Positions 1 to 16,906 of a stretch of 20,464 nt of DNA are shown here, in pieces. Origin of the DNA: a virus (taxonomy: Duplodnaviria > Heunggongvirae > Uroviricota > Caudoviricetes); the IMG/VR virus record IMGVR_UViG_2667527839_000003, positions 1 through 20,464 of that record; one strand, 5' to 3'. Both the position numbers and the translations under genes were made by a program. The first letter of the stretch is position 1. Each line of letters starts with the position of its first letter. Below the pieces are notes generated by a model, which made no database searches, had not been told where the DNA came from, and worked only from the letters and a program-made list of their open reading frames with translations.

Positions 1-561
1 ACCACCACCGGCCCCACCACCACCAACAATTTCAACAATAATAAATCTTGTGCCTTTTGTCGGAGTGTATGTACCTGAGCTTTTAAACACCTGACACCGT
101 ATAAGCATCCCGGAGCCATTTCCCAAACCAAGGTATGTGAGAATGTCAGCAATAGTATTTTTCCCAATAATGTCACGGCCAACAGAAGTTAAATCAGTCT
201 GAGCTGCTTTATCAGTTCCAGTGAAATACGGGAGTTTATTTGCACCAGTTGCTAGACCAGCCAATGCCGTCAGCGTGGCATCAAGCGCCTGGAAATCTTT
301 CCCAAAAGCGGTCCTCATTTTGGAGATAAACCCGTTCAGATCACCATCATCAAGAACGTCCAGCCCACTTTTGTTGGCCGTGTACTGTGCCAGTGCTGCC
401 GCAATAAAGCTGGCTTGCCGAATAGCTTTGTTGACCTGTGCGCTGGATGCTTTACCTGCCGTAAACCCTGAAAGCAGAGCCGGAAGTGCTTCCCAGTCAG
501 CTTGTGAGGTGACGTTAGCGTTCGGATCAAGCGCGAAAGGTTTAAAGTTGTTTATTGCCAT
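1..561 (-). CDS. Tail fiber protein, N-terminal 187 codons; gene continues beyond the window start
   Basis: ATG at 561..559 overlaps the TAA stop of the upstream gene (TAATG). The minus-strand frame is open to position 1. My translation begins MAINNFKPFALDPNANVTSQADWEALPALLSGFTAGKASS, which resembles conserved tail-fiber N-terminal anchor regions, and the gene sits last in the baseplate cluster. Not in the ORF track because it is truncated by the window edge. Confidence 0.65.
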   Translation of the reverse strand, partial: MAINNFKPFALDPNANVTSQADWEALPALLSGFTAGKASSAQVNKAIRQASFIAAALAQYTANKSGLDVLDDGDLNGFISKMRTAFGKDFQALDATLTALAGLATGANKLPYFTGTDKAAQTDLTSVGRDIIGKNTIADILTYLGLGNGSGMLIRCQVFKSSGTYTPTKGTRFIIVEIVGGGGAGGG

Positions 562-1241
562 TAGAGTATTGTCCCCCATGCTCCAACATCGAACCCGCCG
601 ATGTATTCGTTATCCATATCAAACCCAAAGAATTTAGAGCCCTCGGATGGTGCTTCTACCGAAGGCGTTTCAACATCACCGGCCCATACGCCAGCTGCTT
701 TAACGGTGAGATAGCCCTGTTTGATAGCGGCGATCAGTTCGAGAGACACATCAGAAATATCAGTTTCAGGGAAAACCCAGACCGAAATCGTCATGTCCTG
801 GTTGTCGACGATCTGCATCCTCAGGCCTGAGCCTGCGGTAGCAGCGTCAAGGATGGGAGGCAGAGAGTCGTTCCGACCGTCCCAGTTGTTGATAGCGATT
901 TTCGCTTTCAGAATGATGCGGTACGTCTCATCGCTTAGCGTCGTATAGCCAGAATCAGGATCATATGGCCCTTGCCAGATGCCCTGGTCATACCCAAGCC
1001 CGTCAGTGTCCCAGCTGAAATAAACTCCGCTAATTGGCTGGCTGACTATGCGACTGCGTCCGATCCACAGACCGAGGATGTCGAGCTGTACACCGACAGC
1101 AGTATCGATATCGAAGGCTGTTATAAGCCCTGACATAGTGCTGGACACATCAATCAGCGGGCGGGTGCTCAGATCTATATGGTCAAAAAAGAGTGGCTTG
1201 GTAGCGTGGTAGTTAGTGATCAGTTCGGTGTATTTGCTCAT
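561..1241 (-). CDS. Baseplate/tail protein in the Mu gp48 / P2 gpI position (DUF2612-like)
   Basis: 226-aa ORF directly downstream of the J-like gene and upstream of the tail fiber. Start overlaps the upstream stop. Assignment is by position and overall resemblance only. Confidence 0.6.
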   Translation of the reverse strand: MSKYTELITNYHATKPLFFDHIDLSTRPLIDVSSTMSGLITAFDIDTAVGVQLDILGLWIGRSRIVSQPISGVYFSWDTDGLGYDQGIWQGPYDPDSGYTTLSDETYRIILKAKIAINNWDGRNDSLPPILDAATAGSGLRMQIVDNQDMTISVWVFPETDISDVSLELIAAIKQGYLTVKAAGVWAGDVETPSVEAPSEGSKFFGFDMDNEYIGGFDVGAWGTIL

Positions 1242-2437
1242 GAGGTCACCGTGATACTGATATTCGCGGTGCTACAGGACGCCGAAGCATCATAGGCAAT
1301 ATCAATGTTTGATGCCGATACGCTGCCTGATGACTTACCGATCAGCAGGTCGGTAATATCGTAATAGCGGGCATTTCCGCCGCTCACCACGCCAAGGTTT
1401 GCCGGGGAATAAATACGGCTCAGCAGCACGTCGTCGCCAATTGTCAGGCCATTAATATAATCGGCAACAGCCTGTTTGATCTGCTCGCCGATTTGAGAGG
1501 TATACCAGGTAAAAACTTTCAGGGTAATGGCTACGAAAATCGGTACGTCGGTCGAGCGCGAAAAGTTAATGACGTGGGGATTACCGTAAGTATCTGGCAC
1601 CGTGACAGAAGTTTTCCCGTAAGTTGCTGTTCCCTGCCCTTTATTGCCCCTGATAGTCTGGGCGATTTCTGTCACATCACCGCCGTCAACAATCGCAGAA
1701 ATGGAATGAGGCGGCAGCCCGTTGCTATCTGTCGAGCCAGTGTCATTCTCGTACAGTTTGTGACGTGTCACGCCATTAACATTAGCAATAGCACCGTCGA
1801 CACCTTCAAACGGGGTGATTGACGGTAGCGCGACGCTCTGGCCCTGCCGGATGCGAAGCTCCGCGTCTGTCTCGGCCGGAGAACCAACCGTAGCCGCTGC
1901 TGGGTTGGTGACTGATACCCATCCGCGAGTCGGTGTGTTAATGGTGGTGATAGTCCCGGCCATCGCCGCAACCGAACCGCTATTCGCACATGTGGCCGTC
2001 ACCAGCACAGTACCATCAACGCCGATCGCTACACTTGCGGGAAAATTCCAGATAATGCCGTTTTTATCCCGTGCGGAGCCATTCGTGATAGTCGTGCCTG
2101 CCGTACCGGTTAACAGAAGGTCAGCAGTAGAGTTTGTCGCTACTTTTCGCGTGATCCCGTTAATTTTCACATTGCTGCTAAGCGCTGCGGCCTGCGCTGT
2201 CATCGGTGAAAACGAGTTGTAAATCTCGATAGCGGTGTTGTTAGCGTCATGCACGGCAAGAGCCACCAGCGCGACCATCTGCCCGTCTTTGCTGTCTGGT
2301 TCGAGGTAGGCATCACTACCGTAAATCTGCCTGAAATAGCTGGTCAGTGTATCTAGGATTGTCTGGTAATCAGGCGCACTAATCCCCTGGGCGGTTACCG
2401 TTGCCGATAGCCCCAGCGTGTCGAGGTTCAAAGCCAT
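1238..2437 (-). CDS. Baseplate J-like protein (baseplate wedge)
   Basis: 399-aa ORF, Thr/Gly/Ala-rich, in the Mu gp47 / P2 gpJ position between the small wedge protein and the gpI-like protein. The adjacent genes abut (stop 2438, start 2437). Confidence 0.7.
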   Translation of the reverse strand: MALNLDTLGLSATVTAQGISAPDYQTILDTLTSYFRQIYGSDAYLEPDSKDGQMVALVALAVHDANNTAIEIYNSFSPMTAQAAALSSNVKINGITRKVATNSTADLLLTGTAGTTITNGSARDKNGIIWNFPASVAIGVDGTVLVTATCANSGSVAAMAGTITTINTPTRGWVSVTNPAAATVGSPAETDAELRIRQGQSVALPSITPFEGVDGAIANVNGVTRHKLYENDTGSTDSNGLPPHSISAIVDGGDVTEIAQTIRGNKGQGTATYGKTSVTVPDTYGNPHVINFSRSTDVPIFVAITLKVFTWYTSQIGEQIKQAVADYINGLTIGDDVLLSRIYSPANLGVVSGGNARYYDITDLLIGKSSGSVSASNIDIAYDASASCSTANISITVTS

Positions 2438-2791
2438 TTATGCCTCGCTTGTTACAGTCGTCTGGCCGTAGATTGTGTCAATGGAGGAAGTGAAGGTGAC
2501 GCGACGGCTGGTGCCGTCATAATTGGTATCGAAGGAAAGAATCGACAGAACGCCCGGTGTATCCTGTATGCGTTCGCGTATAGCCAGGATGTAGACATCT
2601 GATCGCTGCTTCCCAAGCACCGACTGAACATACGGCGTGCCTTCCGTCAGATCGAGAAACCACTGACCGCGCCACAGCTCGAAGCGGGTTTTTACGGCCT
2701 GGGCGACACATTCCGGACTGTCGATAAGGAAAGTATCGTCACCCTGGCCGAAAGTGTAATCGCCTTCAGTATCTTCGCGACGGTATCGCAT
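2438..2791 (-). CDS. Small baseplate wedge protein (GPW / gp25-like position)
   Basis: 117-aa ORF between the spike and the J-like protein. Its ATG at 2791 shares one nucleotide with the upstream stop. Size and position match P2 gpW / Mu gp46. Confidence 0.55.
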   Translation of the reverse strand: MRYRREDTEGDYTFGQGDDTFLIDSPECVAQAVKTRFELWRGQWFLDLTEGTPYVQSVLGKQRSDVYILAIRERIQDTPGVLSILSFDTNYDGTSRRVTFTSSIDTIYGQTTVTSEA

Positions 2792-3531
2792 TATTGCGGC
2801 CCTCCGGTAGTTCCCCCGCCAGTCTGTACTCCGCCATGTTTATGCGTGGCGACACTGATACCAGAAGCTGTTACGTCATTCGTTACCGTCACCGGCCCAA
2901 GCATCGTCGCAGTACCGCCGCTTTCGCCCATTCCCTGAGACAAGTTGCCATTAATCGTTACGTTGCCGTTCAGCGTGATAGTCGGGGATGTGATTGTCGT
3001 TCCACCTTCAGCCGTAGCTGTAAGCTGGCCCGGTGTTTTAATGGTGATGTTATGTCCTGCGGCGACTTCTACAAACGCCGCACCATCATCGGTTCGCAGC
3101 TGCGCGGCGCTGGTACTGATACCGCTGATTTTCCGTGCTTGCGACTGCGGGCCAACGATGGCGAACGCATCAGATAAGTCATGCTGGCGCGGGTCGACGG
3201 TCTCCTGAACGCCGCCGCTCTGCCACCAAAAATCGATGCAACGGTCAGCAAAAATCAGGAGACACTCGTCGCCTTCTTTTACCGGAAAAGTCAGCGTGCA
3301 ACCGCCGCCGCGCGGAAAGATAACCGGCACATCCACCAGCGGTTTTAATTCGGTAGAGCCATCGCCAACAATACCGCGAAGCGCTACCTCTACCGTGCAG
3401 GTTACAGCGTCAGGATCGAACGACTGAATGATGCCAGGCATTGCTACGCGCATTTGGGTAGACACTGAATCGGCAATGGCCTGGGCGGTCTGCTGCTCGC
3501 CGCCGATCTGTGATTGAGTTGGAATTGGCAT
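2791..3531 (-). CDS. Baseplate central spike protein (P2 gpV / Mu gp45-like)
   Basis: 246 aa. N-terminal region (VDVPVIFPRGGGCTLTFPVKEGDECLLIF) looks like the gpV-type OB-fold domain; C-terminal third is Gly/Thr-rich with short repeats (TITSPTITLNGNVTINGNL, GGVQTGGGTTGG) typical of a spike beta-helix. GGGG Shine-Dalgarno-like sequence about 6 nt upstream of ATG 3531. Confidence 0.7.
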   Translation of the reverse strand: MPIPTQSQIGGEQQTAQAIADSVSTQMRVAMPGIIQSFDPDAVTCTVEVALRGIVGDGSTELKPLVDVPVIFPRGGGCTLTFPVKEGDECLLIFADRCIDFWWQSGGVQETVDPRQHDLSDAFAIVGPQSQARKISGISTSAAQLRTDDGAAFVEVAAGHNITIKTPGQLTATAEGGTTITSPTITLNGNVTINGNLSQGMGESGGTATMLGPVTVTNDVTASGISVATHKHGGVQTGGGTTGGPQ

Positions 3532-3542
3532 AAAAACCCCAT

Positions 3543-3566
3543 AAAAAAAGCCGCTGTATGCGGCTT
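3543..3566 (-). terminator. Rho-independent terminator downstream of the exported-protein pair
   Basis: Minus-strand RNA reads AAGCCGC-AUACA-GCGGCUU: a 7-bp stem (plus 3548-3554 pairing with 3560-3566) and 5-nt loop, running into a U-tract (plus A-run 3543-3549). It lies between the stop of the 128-aa gene (3585) and the spike gene RBS/ATG (3531). Confidence 0.6.
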
Positions 3567-3584
3567 ATCTAAAACATGTATATT

Positions 3585-3971
3585 TTAACCTATCTTATAA
3601 AGGTCAACTAATTTTAAAAAACCACCACTACCACAAGCTGTAAACCTAATAAAATAAGGCTCACCAATATTAATCATGCTATTAACTATATCGTTATCAT
3701 TTTTTGATAATTCTTCAAAGCCAGTAGGAATGACAAAAACTTTACTACCAACACCCTGGAATCTTATTAATTTTATAGTGGCTCCACTGTCAGAATACTG
3801 TGTTCCTTTTGCCACTGCCAAACCTTCATGAAGTTCACACCCCTCAAGATTGGCGTCGCTCAGTCCCTTCACTGACTGGCTACCCGTCAATTGATCATAA
3901 CTTATCTTAACTTCTGCATTCGAAATGAAAGATGTAAGCACCATCCCTAGCATAAGTAAAATTCGAATCAT
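3585..3971 (-). CDS. Exported small protein of unknown function (moron), AT-rich
   Basis: 128-aa ORF with an N-terminal Sec-type signal peptide (MIRILLMLGMVLTSFISNA then EVK). Two Cys in the mature part. Strong RBS (GAGGAAAAA before the ATG). About 37% GC by my hand count over 3601-3960, against 53-62% in flanking genes. Confidence 0.7.
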   Translation of the reverse strand: MIRILLMLGMVLTSFISNAEVKISYDQLTGSQSVKGLSDANLEGCELHEGLAVAKGTQYSDSGATIKLIRFQGVGSKVFVIPTGFEELSKNDNDIVNSMINIGEPYFIRFTACGSGGFLKLVDLYKIG

Positions 3972-3990
3972 TTTTTCCTCGATGTAGTAA

Positions 3991-4341
3991 TCAGTTAACT
4001 TTTATACAGTCGTAAGTAGCATACTGACGTGGAGCGTTCATGTTTGCTTGCAGCCACTGAGCGTTGAGAATGGCTTTGCCGTTACGCTTGATGTATTCGA
4101 GCCCTACCCACCGGCCAGGCTGGTCAGTAGCCATGCGCCATTCCATCTTAATGTTCTCGTAGTCTTCTTTTTGCTTAAGGAACGTTACCTTCTGACTTTC
4201 AGGCTTCGCACCGTTAATGCGTGCCCATCCATCATTTGTCGGGCTCGTGCCCAAGTGGAAAGGCCCACACTGGGAATCAGCATGAGCCACGCCCGCCAAG
4301 GCAAAAGAGCTGCAAGCAATCATCAGGATGAGTTTTTTCAT
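3991..4341 (-). CDS. Exported small protein of unknown function (moron)
   Basis: 116-aa ORF with N-terminal signal peptide (MKKLILMIACSSFALAGVAHA then DSQ; AXA-type cleavage site). Mature protein has Cys near each end (QCG near the N-terminus, YDC near the C-terminus). About 50% GC by hand count. ATG lies 3 nt after the stop of the upstream 353-aa gene with no obvious Shine-Dalgarno sequence. Confidence 0.7.
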   Translation of the reverse strand: MKKLILMIACSSFALAGVAHADSQCGPFHLGTSPTNDGWARINGAKPESQKVTFLKQKEDYENIKMEWRMATDQPGRWVGLEYIKRNGKAILNAQWLQANMNAPRQYATYDCIKVN

Positions 4342-4344
4342 TTT

Positions 4345-5406
4345 TTAAAACGTCCGGTTAAGTGATGCGTTACTCTGCAAATCGCGGCTGCCACGCGCGA
4401 AGCACATCAAATCCATGTACCACGCCTGACCTCTGGTGTCGCCAGTATAGTCGATAGCTTTGACGATATAAACGCCATCCGTCGCAATGCTGGCAGCCTG
4501 TGACGTCGTACCGATCAGCACACGGTTGCCGTTCTCTTCTGTTTCGGTGATACGCCCGGGCGACTGTGCGATTTCGCTATTGCCGAGCGCGACGCGGTAC
4601 ACCGAAGCCTGATCGAGCTGGATAAGACCATTAATACGGATGTTTGGGTTTATCAGGCACCGCACGTTTACGCCGCCGCCCATCGTTTGTTGCGGCATAC
4701 CGATCAGGCCAGTATCGGCATTCAACACAATGGCTTCGTGAATATATTTATCTTCAGGCACCATCTGGACCTGACCATCCACCAGTTGCCATGTTGCTTT
4801 ACACTGCGCAGCAATATTATCCATCACGTTGCGGGTGGATGAGTAAATCGCGCGGCCACGAGGAAACACGGTATCAGGAAAGTCACCGGTAATGCCCTGC
4901 GTCACGCCGAACGCGTTGAAATCCTGCATAGTCGCCCGGTGCAGGTCCGCAACGGTATAACCAGCGGCAAGCGTGGTGATGGTAGTCGCGTAGAGGAACG
5001 CTTCGTGGTTACTGATGGCCTGAATCAGCACCCAGGAATCGGTGATGTTGTCCTTCCCGGTGACGGTGAAGCGAATATCACCGTCAAATATCAGGCCGTA
5101 GTTCTGACCGTTCACCTGCCCTACCTGGTCTGGTGAAATCTCCCGGGCGACACCAACCTGGCTCGCATCAACATCCGGCGCAATACCGTCATACCCGGCA
5201 ATGATGCGAATTTTTGCAAACTCCTGCCCCAGTATCTTGTTCGTGGTATCGGTCGAAAGGTTGTAAATTTTCACGTTCGCCACTCGCGGCCAGCGTGTAT
5301 CTGCCCACTCGATCTGGAACGTGACCTTAAAATCAGACAGGGAAACGCCCTGCCCGTTCTGGTCCAACAGTTGCAGCTCAAAATGGCGCATCCAGTTAAG
5401 AGACAT
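4345..5406 (-). CDS. Baseplate hub-region protein (P2 gpD / Mu gp44 position)
   Basis: 353-aa ORF between the post-tape-measure proteins and the spike. Assignment is positional and by size; I see no diagnostic motif. Confidence 0.5.
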   Translation of the reverse strand: MSLNWMRHFELQLLDQNGQGVSLSDFKVTFQIEWADTRWPRVANVKIYNLSTDTTNKILGQEFAKIRIIAGYDGIAPDVDASQVGVAREISPDQVGQVNGQNYGLIFDGDIRFTVTGKDNITDSWVLIQAISNHEAFLYATTITTLAAGYTVADLHRATMQDFNAFGVTQGITGDFPDTVFPRGRAIYSSTRNVMDNIAAQCKATWQLVDGQVQMVPEDKYIHEAIVLNADTGLIGMPQQTMGGGVNVRCLINPNIRINGLIQLDQASVYRVALGNSEIAQSPGRITETEENGNRVLIGTTSQAASIATDGVYIVKAIDYTGDTRGQAWYMDLMCFARGSRDLQSNASLNRTF

Positions 5407-16132: not shown

Positions 16133-16906
16133 TCAGGCGAGATAAGAATGAGGGTTGGGGAAGACGATTTCTTTGTAACAGCGGCAGTTCGGCAGCTCAC
16201 CAGCGTGACCGGTCATACCGTCAAGCGTTGGAGGTCGGCCCCATTCGACAAACTTACCTTCCATCTCCCGATGAGAATGCCGGACGTCGCCATCTTCGGC
16301 TGTACGCCAGATATAACCATTCGAGCCGATTGACAGCGCACGCGCCTGATCCAATGCACCGGTTGCGCGCCCAAGCTCAGTCCGGGCGATAAGGTTCGCT
16401 CGTGAGCGTGACACGTCACCGGAAGCAGCTATCTCTTTCGCGAATGGCTCAGCGCGGCCACCAGTTACTACAGCCTCGATGGCCTTGTTCTGAATGTCAT
16501 ACACCCGATCGGCGGCCTCAAGAGGCAGAGATTTGATGTACTTAATTTGCTCGGCGACGATGGATTTCATCACCTGGCCTACCGGGGCGCGGTCGACCAT
16601 GTTGCGTAGTTCTGCGCTGATGTTCCGACTGTGCTGACGCCACTGCTTTTCATTCTGGCGCGCAATGTCGGCGGTGAAGCTCTCAGCAACCTTAGTCGCC
16701 CAGGGGGTGATGATTTCGCTGTAGCGCTCCAGCGCATCCATTATTTCGGTGACGCTATCGTTTGAACCATCGTAGCGACCATTTACGATATCCCCGACCG
16801 CCCGCGCTATCTGCCGTAGGCTCGTTCGATATCGGATCTCCGCCTGGCGGCTCTGGCGGTTTGTCGCCAAGTTCGCCGATGCCTGGCGGCGCTTCGTCTT
16901 CGGCAT
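16133..16906 (-). CDS. Head morphogenesis protein, Mu F-like / SPP1 gp7 family (start uncertain)
   Basis: C-terminal region has the family pattern (VRHSHREMEGKFVEW ... GELPNCRCY). The longest ORF overlaps the portal gene by about 150 nt; an in-frame ATG at 16741 would give a roughly 17-nt overlap. Confidence 0.75.
   Translation of the reverse strand: MPKTKRRQASANLATNRQSRQAEIRYRTSLRQIARAVGDIVNGRYDGSNDSVTEIMDALERYSEIITPWATKVAESFTADIARQNEKQWRQHSRNISAELRNMVDRAPVGQVMKSIVAEQIKYIKSLPLEAADRVYDIQNKAIEAVVTGGRAEPFAKEIAASGDVSRSRANLIARTELGRATGALDQARALSIGSNGYIWRTAEDGDVRHSHREMEGKFVEWGRPPTLDGMTGHAGELPNCRCYKEIVFPNPHSYLA

Follow-up and report, generated by a model that had tools for sequence, protein, structure and literature searches.

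A predicted intrinsic terminator at the right-hand boundary of an accessory gene slot between the baseplate hub and spike genes of SEN34-like phages

Morons in the tail operons of lambdoid phages have been described as carrying their own promoter and terminator (PMC3594210). In HK97 gene 15 and the lambdoid morons (Juhala et al. 2000; PMC3594210), extra DNA of atypical GC content lies between tail genes. The cargo of HK97-type morons is a small envelope-targeted protein, a factor-independent terminator follows it, and essential tail genes are located downstream in the same late transcript (PMC3594210). How such terminators can be passed is known from processive antitermination in the lambda late operon, in which Q proteins make RNA polymerase resistant to terminator hairpins (tR′ and the terminators beyond it; PMC9388147).

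The DNA analyzed here, a stretch of 20,464 bases that we call the window throughout, resembles both systems. As in the HK97-type morons, DNA of unusual base composition encoding small exported proteins interrupts the tail genes and is followed by a terminator-like hairpin, with essential genes beyond it. As in lambda, there is a single co-directional late block, preceded in complete relatives by a Q-like gene and a lysis cassette, and within it a predicted intrinsic terminator that would have to be overridden. We consider it likely that this hairpin is a functional Rho-independent terminator and that it forms the fixed right-hand boundary of an accessory slot between the hub and spike genes, insulating the prophage and being transparent in the lytic cycle. 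The phages that hold the slot are SEN34-like (Brunovirus-like) lambdoid myophages of the Enterobacterales. We found no description of a hub-spike slot in SEN34/Brunovirus phages in the literature searched.

Between 20403 and 561, every gene is encoded on the minus strand, and most abut or overlap (Table 1); from gpV to the wedge gene there is no intergenic space at all. The hub gene is the conserved left flank of the slot and is found upstream of it in nearly all relatives. On the other side, the first gene downstream of the terminator is gpV, annotated in RefSeq as "phage baseplate assembly protein V."

Table 1. Positions of the features of the window, in order along the minus strand
Feature	Position	Strand	Remarks
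Small terminase gene	20403-19849	(-)	At the window end; large terminase, portal, and capsid genes next downstream
Tail sheath gene	9662-11152	(-)	Followed by the tube gene
Tape measure gene	8604-6337	(-)	
Dit-like protein gene	6337-5711	(-)	
Pam3-gp18-like plug gene	5714-5409	(-)	
Baseplate hub gene (353 aa)	4345..5406	(-)	phrog_196 "baseplate hub," 3.2e-84; weak PF22759 match
Gene for 116-aa signal-peptide protein	3991..4341	(-)	phrog_3443; start 3 nt after the hub stop
Gene for 128-aa ORFan with signal peptide	3585..3971	(-)	Hypervariable cargo proper
Predicted Rho-independent terminator	3543..3566	(-)	Stem AAGCCGC/GCGGCUU, loop AUACA, 7-U run 3549-3543
gpV translation initiation region	3529..3542	(-)	AU-GGGG(SD)-UUUUU-AUG; assigned to the backbone; directly after the U-run
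Spike gpV gene (246 aa)	2791..3531	(-)	PF18352 (central-spike N-terminal domain), 1.4e-41; PF18946 (GpV apex motif), 3.5e-08
gp25-like sheath initiator gene	2438-2791	(-)	
Baseplate J gene	1238-2437	(-)	
DUF2612 wedge gene	561-1241	(-)	

Two other features of the late block deserve mention. The window sheath has 496 aa, compared to 386 in Omnitron, 386 in AW1.7, and 383 in SEN34; the extra segment of about 115 aa (residues ~99 to 214) separates N- and C-terminal parts that are conserved. Immediately behind the major capsid gene, a stable GC hairpin, CGGCCCCGAAAGGGGCC (13398-13415, minus strand), folds at -16 kcal/mol (z = -3.4) without a U-run. The capsid gene stops at 13425 and the next gene starts at 13383; in SEN34 the gap there is only 8 nt. 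This hairpin looks like an mRNA-stabilizing or pausing element rather than a terminator.

An earlier note on this DNA had placed a stem and U-tract terminator inside the tail and baseplate operon, and the positions it gave are exactly those of the hairpin plus the U-run. Direct reading of the minus strand gives a 5′ arm (3566-3560), a 5-nt loop (3559-3555), and a 3′ arm (3554-3548), forming a 7-bp stem of five G-C and two A-U pairs. The first two of the seven consecutive U residues pair with the AA of the 5′ arm. Past the U-run come AU, the GGGG of the Shine-Dalgarno (SD) sequence at 3540-3537, UUUUU, and the gpV start AUG at 3531-3529. The note was also right in its placing of the hairpin directly after a pair of genes for exported proteins and a few nucleotides before the ribosome binding site of the spike gene: both small open reading frames (ORFs) encode typical Sec signal peptides (MKKLILMIACSSFALAGVAHA|D and MIRILLMLGMVLTSFISNA|E), 18 nt lie between the 128-aa stop codon (3587-3585) and the stem, and only 2 nt separate the U-run from the gpV SD. 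From the end of the stem to the gpV ATG there are 16 nt.

The hairpin has every sequence-level feature expected of an intrinsic terminator. Folding of the minus strand, which the note had suggested as a check, gave -11.3 kcal/mol for the 30-nt element at 3570-3541 (z = -4.66), and none of 200 shuffled sequences folded equally well; the core stem alone accounts for -8.3 kcal/mol. A strict scan of both strands, requiring at least five G-C pairs and at least seven T's among the eight positions after the GC core, found this hairpin as the sole match in the 20,464 bases. The mean for 200 dinucleotide shuffles was 0.05 matches, with any match at all in 5 of the 200. By a loose consensus, the whole window has 21 terminator-like sites against 20.3 in shuffles, which is the chance frequency. 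The element is one-directional, facing the late transcript; read on the plus strand, the stem is followed by AUCUAAAA, and no U-run is present there.

Membership in a described RNA family was considered and set aside. The window had no Rfam match at the gathering score, and the subthreshold matches over the hairpin (Trp leader, STnc220, and isrK) scored 19 to 23 bits against thresholds of 41 to 60, reflecting a generic terminator shape. A 66-nt fold adds a weak A-U helix between the region of the 128-aa stop codon and the gpV start; we did not use it, as other cargos would not be expected to preserve it.

In related genomes, the hairpin is fixed at one site. Near-identical DNA is found in Escherichia coli AW1.7 (97%) and in Citrobacter phage Omnitron, while about 50 other E. 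coli prophages match the flanks only. Nine annotated relatives have different genes between the hub and gpV, including a Doc/Phd toxin-antitoxin pair (locus L006), an opposite-strand DUF4236 gene, lipoprotein-like genes of 240 and 371 aa, and several others. In all nine, a GC hairpin and T-run are at the same place, directly before the conserved TTTTTTTATGGRGTTTTTATG. We collected 160 further loci by means of the gpV protein, 80 from bacterial contigs with one genome per species, spanning Escherichia to Photorhabdus, Erwinia, and Yersinia, and 80 from IMG/VR, for a total of 170 gpV relatives, and sorted them by the distance from the hub stop to the gpV start.

Where the hub and gpV genes overlap (class A), a hairpin with a U-run was found in 0 of 27 loci. 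With a gap of 30 to 86 nt and no cargo (class B), it was present in 12 or 13 of 14. All 109 loci with a gap larger than 450 nt (class D) have it. Between these lies class C: 0 of 5 loci with a gap of about 360 nt, in which a gene of the 116-aa family alone abuts gpV, have a real hairpin, the single match in the scan being inside coding sequence, 47 nt from the ATG, and therefore discounted; among the others of this class (291 to 417 nt), three are clear (L073, L139, and L153) and L080 has a weak one. In every hairpin-bearing case, the stem ends 15 to 23 nt from the gpV ATG, and in essentially all copies a run of 5 to 9 U residues comes right after the stem. A scan of the sense strand of 118 loci (945 kb) found 113 terminators in the 250 nt before gpV and no more than 6 in any other 250-nt bin within 4 kb on either side.

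Cargo-free relatives have kept the terminator even though they have diverged considerably; its loops differ among them, and its stems are the same. Since it persists in class B, insulation from cargo transcription is not the whole reason for keeping it; in those phages it may have a role in the backbone or may be the scar of cargo loss.

Individual relatives show some further variation. Klebsiella phage ST405-OXA48phi1.2 (L177, 2320-2500) is an exception: its cargo gene, for 222 aa, lies on the opposite strand, and gpV is not preceded by a canonical hairpin with a U-run. In SEN34 (L173/L174, 17161-17298), a small insert with a 45-aa ORF is located between gpV and the gp25-like gene. A few relatives have, some 750 nt past the start of gpV, a site resembling a terminator; this region may be a second, minor slot.

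The stems themselves argue that what is conserved is an RNA structure. There are 69 distinct stem-loops, with highly variable loops. RNAalifold, run on an alignment of 36 diverse copies (alignment A1), returned the same 7-pair helix, and five of the seven pairs show changes on both sides. The outer pair changes from C-G to G-C, the variant in the window; the third changes from C-G to A-U or U-A, and the fourth from G-C to A-U. Altogether, 98.4% of the cells are paired, and 0 of 500 shuffles reached any of the five measures. When the partner was slid by 1 to 3 columns, pairing fell to 35 to 56%. The aligned sequences had already passed a hairpin filter, as did all 109 of the large-gap loci, so the resulting bias is small. 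These compensatory patterns indicate that the hairpin structure is under selection.

To which element, cargo or phage, does the terminator belong? Among 112 loci, we counted 58 unrelated clusters of sequence adjoining the hairpin. The slot ranges in length from 249 to about 2,800 nt, with the hub and gpV genes as flanks throughout, as in hotspots with conserved core flanks and alternative cargos. One hairpin, AACCCGCCRCCGAGCGGGTT, comes after at least six different cargos in the E. coli-type backbone; another, AAACCCGCCACCCGGCGGGTTT, comes after at least eight in the SEN34-type backbone. The gpV initiation region of the E. coli-type relatives, TTTTTTTATGGRGTTTTTATGCCAATTCC, is common to them irrespective of cargo. 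In about ten clusters, the neighboring ORF is on the opposite strand, and therefore the hairpin is not the terminator of that gene.

Breakpoints in the window agree with this. Aligned with L002, L003, and L006, the window loses similarity at 3995, where the 116-aa gene stops, and regains it at 3554/3555, the point at which the 3′ arm begins. Thus, the exchanged module (approximately 3555-3994) consists of the 128-aa gene, the 5′ arm, and the loop, and these alignments assign the 3′ arm, the U-run, and the SD to the phage backbone. The 5′ arm and loop travel with the 128-aa cargo, as seen in L052 and in L175, although the loop differs in L175. Pairs of loci with different cargos share more than 3 nt upstream of the stem in 27/877 and 13/761 cases, a count for which we used the ungapped breakpoint walk, applied solely to similarity upstream of the stem since it is blurred by indels in the loop and T-run.

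The earlier note had taken the insert to be a self-contained moron of the promoter-gene-terminator type, and this view survives in part. It is extra DNA, given that 27 relatives have overlapping genes at this point, 14 have a gap of 30 to 86 nt, and others have different cargo, and its GC content is odd (31 to 41% over 3500-4000, compared to 52 to 58% in the flanks). Against it, we saw no evident promoter, and the backbone supplies the 3′ arm and U-run. The terminator is not straightforwardly part of the insert: homology resumes at the 3′ arm, the hairpin is common to at least six cargos, and it is present without any cargo.

Two side observations concern the slot as a whole. Identities to the hub and to the gpV of the window are uncoupled in L052, L073, L079, and L083 (for example, 89% versus 73% and 85% versus 59%), and hence the slot is also a mosaic joint between a tail-tube/hub module and a spike/baseplate/fiber module. 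In addition, a motif, CCTGAYATTTGATCAGT, containing a partial palindrome (CTGA...TCAG), is found about 8 to 25 nt upstream of the hairpin in loci with an opposite-strand cargo ORF of 116 to 121 aa (L003, L007, L023, L026, L054, L083, L094, L126, and L157, from Escherichia, Kosakonia, Serratia, and Izhakiella). Possibly this motif serves the divergent cargo gene as an operator or promoter.

The 128-aa protein had no match in Pfam, PHROG, NCBIfam, or PADLOC and has only four protein clusters among 5.8 billion proteins. Every copy of the family examined in context sits in the hub-spike slot, including two diverged relatives that were looked up (74% identity; L175, 3001-3390, and L176, 3001-3387). 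L175 keeps the GCCGC stem; in L176, on a different backbone, a CCCGC/GCGGG hairpin of the local backbone type follows the gene. The 116-aa protein, for its part, has phrog_3443 (function unknown) as its sole match, with none in PADLOC, Pfam, or NCBIfam. It recurs by the hub gene at 58 to 96% identity in L002, L003, L004, L006, L008, and SEN34, a distribution that makes its gene a semiconserved neighbor of the hub and not hypervariable cargo; it may be a regular exported accessory of the tail module. Elsewhere, the cargo includes the Doc/Phd pair in L006 and lipoprotein-like or exported proteins in several loci.

We also searched for promoters. There was no sigma-70-like match between the hairpin and gpV, nor in the 19 nt from the 116-aa stop to the 128-aa start. 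Sigma-70-like matches overall (15, compared to 13.9 in shuffles) were at chance frequency, and the sole promoter-like match upstream of the gene pair, at 4472-4444, is inside the hub gene. By sequence, then, a cargo promoter can be neither assigned nor excluded; that none was identified counts against the insulating role.

Upstream of gpV, conservation across the 58 cargo types is limited to the 3′ arm of the hairpin, the U-run, and the SD. With so many unrelated cargo clusters, no conserved gpV promoter lies upstream, and since nothing but half a hairpin, a U-run, and an SD is conserved, the spike, baseplate, and fiber genes would need readthrough. The note had argued that there is no room for a spike gene promoter and that the downstream genes must be reached by readthrough; the 2-nt spacing bears out the former, and the lack of any conserved promoter-sized sequence 5′ of gpV, in a block in which the late genes are co-directional, supports the latter. 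An out-of-frame AUG (3540-3542, minus strand) overlaps the gpV SD (AUGGGG); an ORF starting there would have 32 codons. This AUG belongs to a conserved TTTATGGRG motif, lacks an SD of its own, and is probably unused.

For the terminator-resistant late transcription that the note had also raised, Q-like antiterminators offer the natural explanation, as judged from their place ahead of the late block in complete lambdoid relatives. The window ends at the small terminase gene, so that Q and the late promoter lie outside it. The AW1.7 prophage, 97% identical over the region and with the same cargo, has N, a cI-like repressor, cro, cII, and nin genes, then a Q-family pseudogene and a lambda-type holin gene, followed by one co-directional block to the fibers. 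This prophage (L010), the nearest relative from a complete genome with that cargo, is probably defective, with two IS66-family elements in the early region and an internal stop in Q (8895-13592 and 16394-16882). At the corresponding position, the E89 prophage carries a Q-family gene that is intact; in SEN34 (genus Brunovirus), the holin gene is preceded by a Q-like gene. In Omnitron, which shares the cargo and hairpin of the window, the ORF before the holin gene matches phrog_753, "anti-termination protein Q-like" (1.5e-57). No match to it was found by tblastn with the E89 and AW1.7 Q proteins or by BLASTP against the SEN34 Q protein; given the PHROG profile match, it belongs to a different Q-like family. 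Three relatives thus carry three different Q-like families (phrog_753, 943, and 127).

We imagine that the slot would work as follows. An ordinary polymerase arriving from the hub or cargo side, having started at a cargo promoter or at a spurious promoter active in the lysogen, would form the hairpin and release at the U-run, sparing the spike, baseplate, and fiber genes. During lytic growth, the late block, from terminase to fibers, would be read from the late promoter by a Q-modified, terminator-resistant polymerase that passes through the hairpin, and gpV would be translated from its own SD just beyond the U-run. The 5′ arm and loop would have come in with the 128-aa cargo and been completed by the 3′ arm, U-run, and SD of the backbone. 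Any benefit to the prophage would lie in this insulation. The same scheme has been put forward for morons in the tail operons of lambdoid phages (PMC3594210).

Other explanations have to be weighed against this one. The loose scan, with its chance-level count (21 versus 20.3), is what one would expect if the hairpin were merely an inverted repeat without function, but this idea is in effect refuted by the comparative sequence data: the hairpin is the sole strict match where 0.05 was expected, its position is fixed in 113 of 118 loci, and its covariation is significant, leaving chance a negligible probability. A more serious proposal, if still a rather unlikely one, is a leaky attenuator, a partial terminator that lowers baseplate and fiber transcription relative to the upstream tail genes independently of antitermination, in the manner of T-phi behind the T7 capsid gene. 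The short stem, with five G-C pairs and a core of -8.3 kcal/mol, may terminate incompletely, and retention of the hairpin in cargo-free relatives suggests a backbone role. The hairpin is also at the start of the V-W-J-I-fiber module, which in P2 is a separate late operon. However, there is no obvious copy number step at the hub/spike junction, 27 relatives do without gap or hairpin, and Q-type antiterminators, present in complete relatives, would largely cancel any attenuation. If other contractile tails are a guide, hub and spike alike should be trimers. We regard as very unlikely a role in RNA stability or processing, in which the hairpin would protect the 3′ end of the upstream message or a processed downstream 5′ end from exonucleases. 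Stable hairpins at gene ends are common in the operon, the -16 kcal/mol capsid gene hairpin without a U-run among them, and the conservation of structure with a loop free to vary would fit. A stabilizer does not need the conserved run of 5 to 9 U residues, though, which is the signature of termination, and the capsid gene hairpin shows what a stabilizer lacking a U-run looks like in the same genome.

The hairpin might instead matter as DNA, the GC stem and T-run being the site at which cassettes are swapped, by short-homology recombination between terminators or by some unknown hairpin-recognizing enzyme, so that conservation would reflect cassette traffic and not transcription. Similarity between loci with different cargos does break off within or at the hairpin (in the window, where the 3′ arm starts); sharing upstream of the stem is as rare as counted above; and several loci, L052 and L073 among them, have uncoupled hub and gpV identities. 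Still, no recombinase was found in the slot, in the annotated relatives or in the loci with the 128-aa family, and the stem varies with compensatory changes, as expected for function in RNA. The breakpoints would look no different if selection favored a working terminator after any insertion, and the walk used to place them is blurred by the indels mentioned. Exchange at the DNA level therefore seems to us distinctly unlikely. One can also envision a combined role, quite unlikely in our estimate, in which the hairpin is both a selected, permanent checkpoint of the backbone and a docking point for cargo exchange. As a checkpoint, it would be kept in cargo-free phages so that the host-range module of spike, baseplate, and fibers is expressed only by Q-modified polymerase; as a docking point, its GC stem and T-run would provide microhomology at which new accessory genes with similar terminators are captured. 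A terminator that bounds the slot, insulating the prophage and transparent to late transcription, remains our preferred reading.

For the window alone, the significance is small, since textbook morons already place a terminator behind an accessory gene within a late operon under Q control. Of modest use is the comparative finding that the terminator is fixed to the site of a hypervariable slot. The hub-terminator-spike junction is a hotspot with sharp limits and a wide distribution; it occurs in Escherichia, Salmonella, Klebsiella, Enterobacter, Serratia, Photorhabdus, Pantoea, Erwinia, and Yersinia and holds dozens of uncharacterized small exported proteins, lipoproteins, and toxin-antitoxin pairs. 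Its right-hand signature of stem, U-run, SD, and gpV could be used to mine candidate genes for superinfection exclusion or defense. The series from no gap, through an empty gap with a terminator, to cargo with a terminator is a natural test set for distinguishing an insulator from some other backbone function. Were the checkpoint and docking roles to prove true, terminators would be active organizers of phage mosaicism, and the slot, as a terminator-anchored cassette site, would bear a loose resemblance to the hairpin sites at which integron cassettes recombine, but without a dedicated recombinase.

How the slot differs from the systems it most resembles is instructive. Unlike the cargo of HK97-type morons, the 128-aa gene has no detectable promoter of its own, and the 3′ half of the terminator belongs to the backbone, is common to many cargos, and is present without cargo; it is a fixture of the site rather than a part of the insert. 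In contrast to lambda, Q, its binding site, and the late promoter lie beyond the window here, and the relatives have three different Q-like families, which would act on the slot terminator. The P2-like hotspots Z/fun and old/tin (PMC9122126; bioRxiv 10.1101/2024.10.15.618418) also have two core genes flanking alternating accessory genes; one P2 hotspot adjoins baseplate and tail genes, and the cargo includes toxin-antitoxin pairs, as does the slot with Doc/Phd. They belong to another phage family, however, whereas here the flanks are the hub and spike genes, the cargo of the window matches no known defense models, and the slot is inside an essential operon rather than between operons, so that a terminator compatible with readthrough is needed.

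Two more distant systems share the logic of a terminator that is overridden when required. In Tn916, terminator T1 acts as an insulator that silences the integrated element, and the element's own processive antitermination, by canT, reads through when it is active (PMC11658703). Tn916 is a conjugative Gram-positive element with an RNA antiterminator, though, and its terminator is at the edge of the element, facing host promoters, and not in an internal slot. In T7, T-phi, after the capsid gene, is likewise an intrinsic terminator in the late region with essential tail genes downstream that are reached by readthrough. T-phi acts on T7 RNA polymerase with partial efficiency and at a clear copy number step, whereas no such step is seen here and a dedicated antiterminator is available to the slot phages, given the Q-like genes of complete relatives. 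The mechanism is thus an ordinary one, and a terminator at an accessory slot is an arrangement of a type already known.
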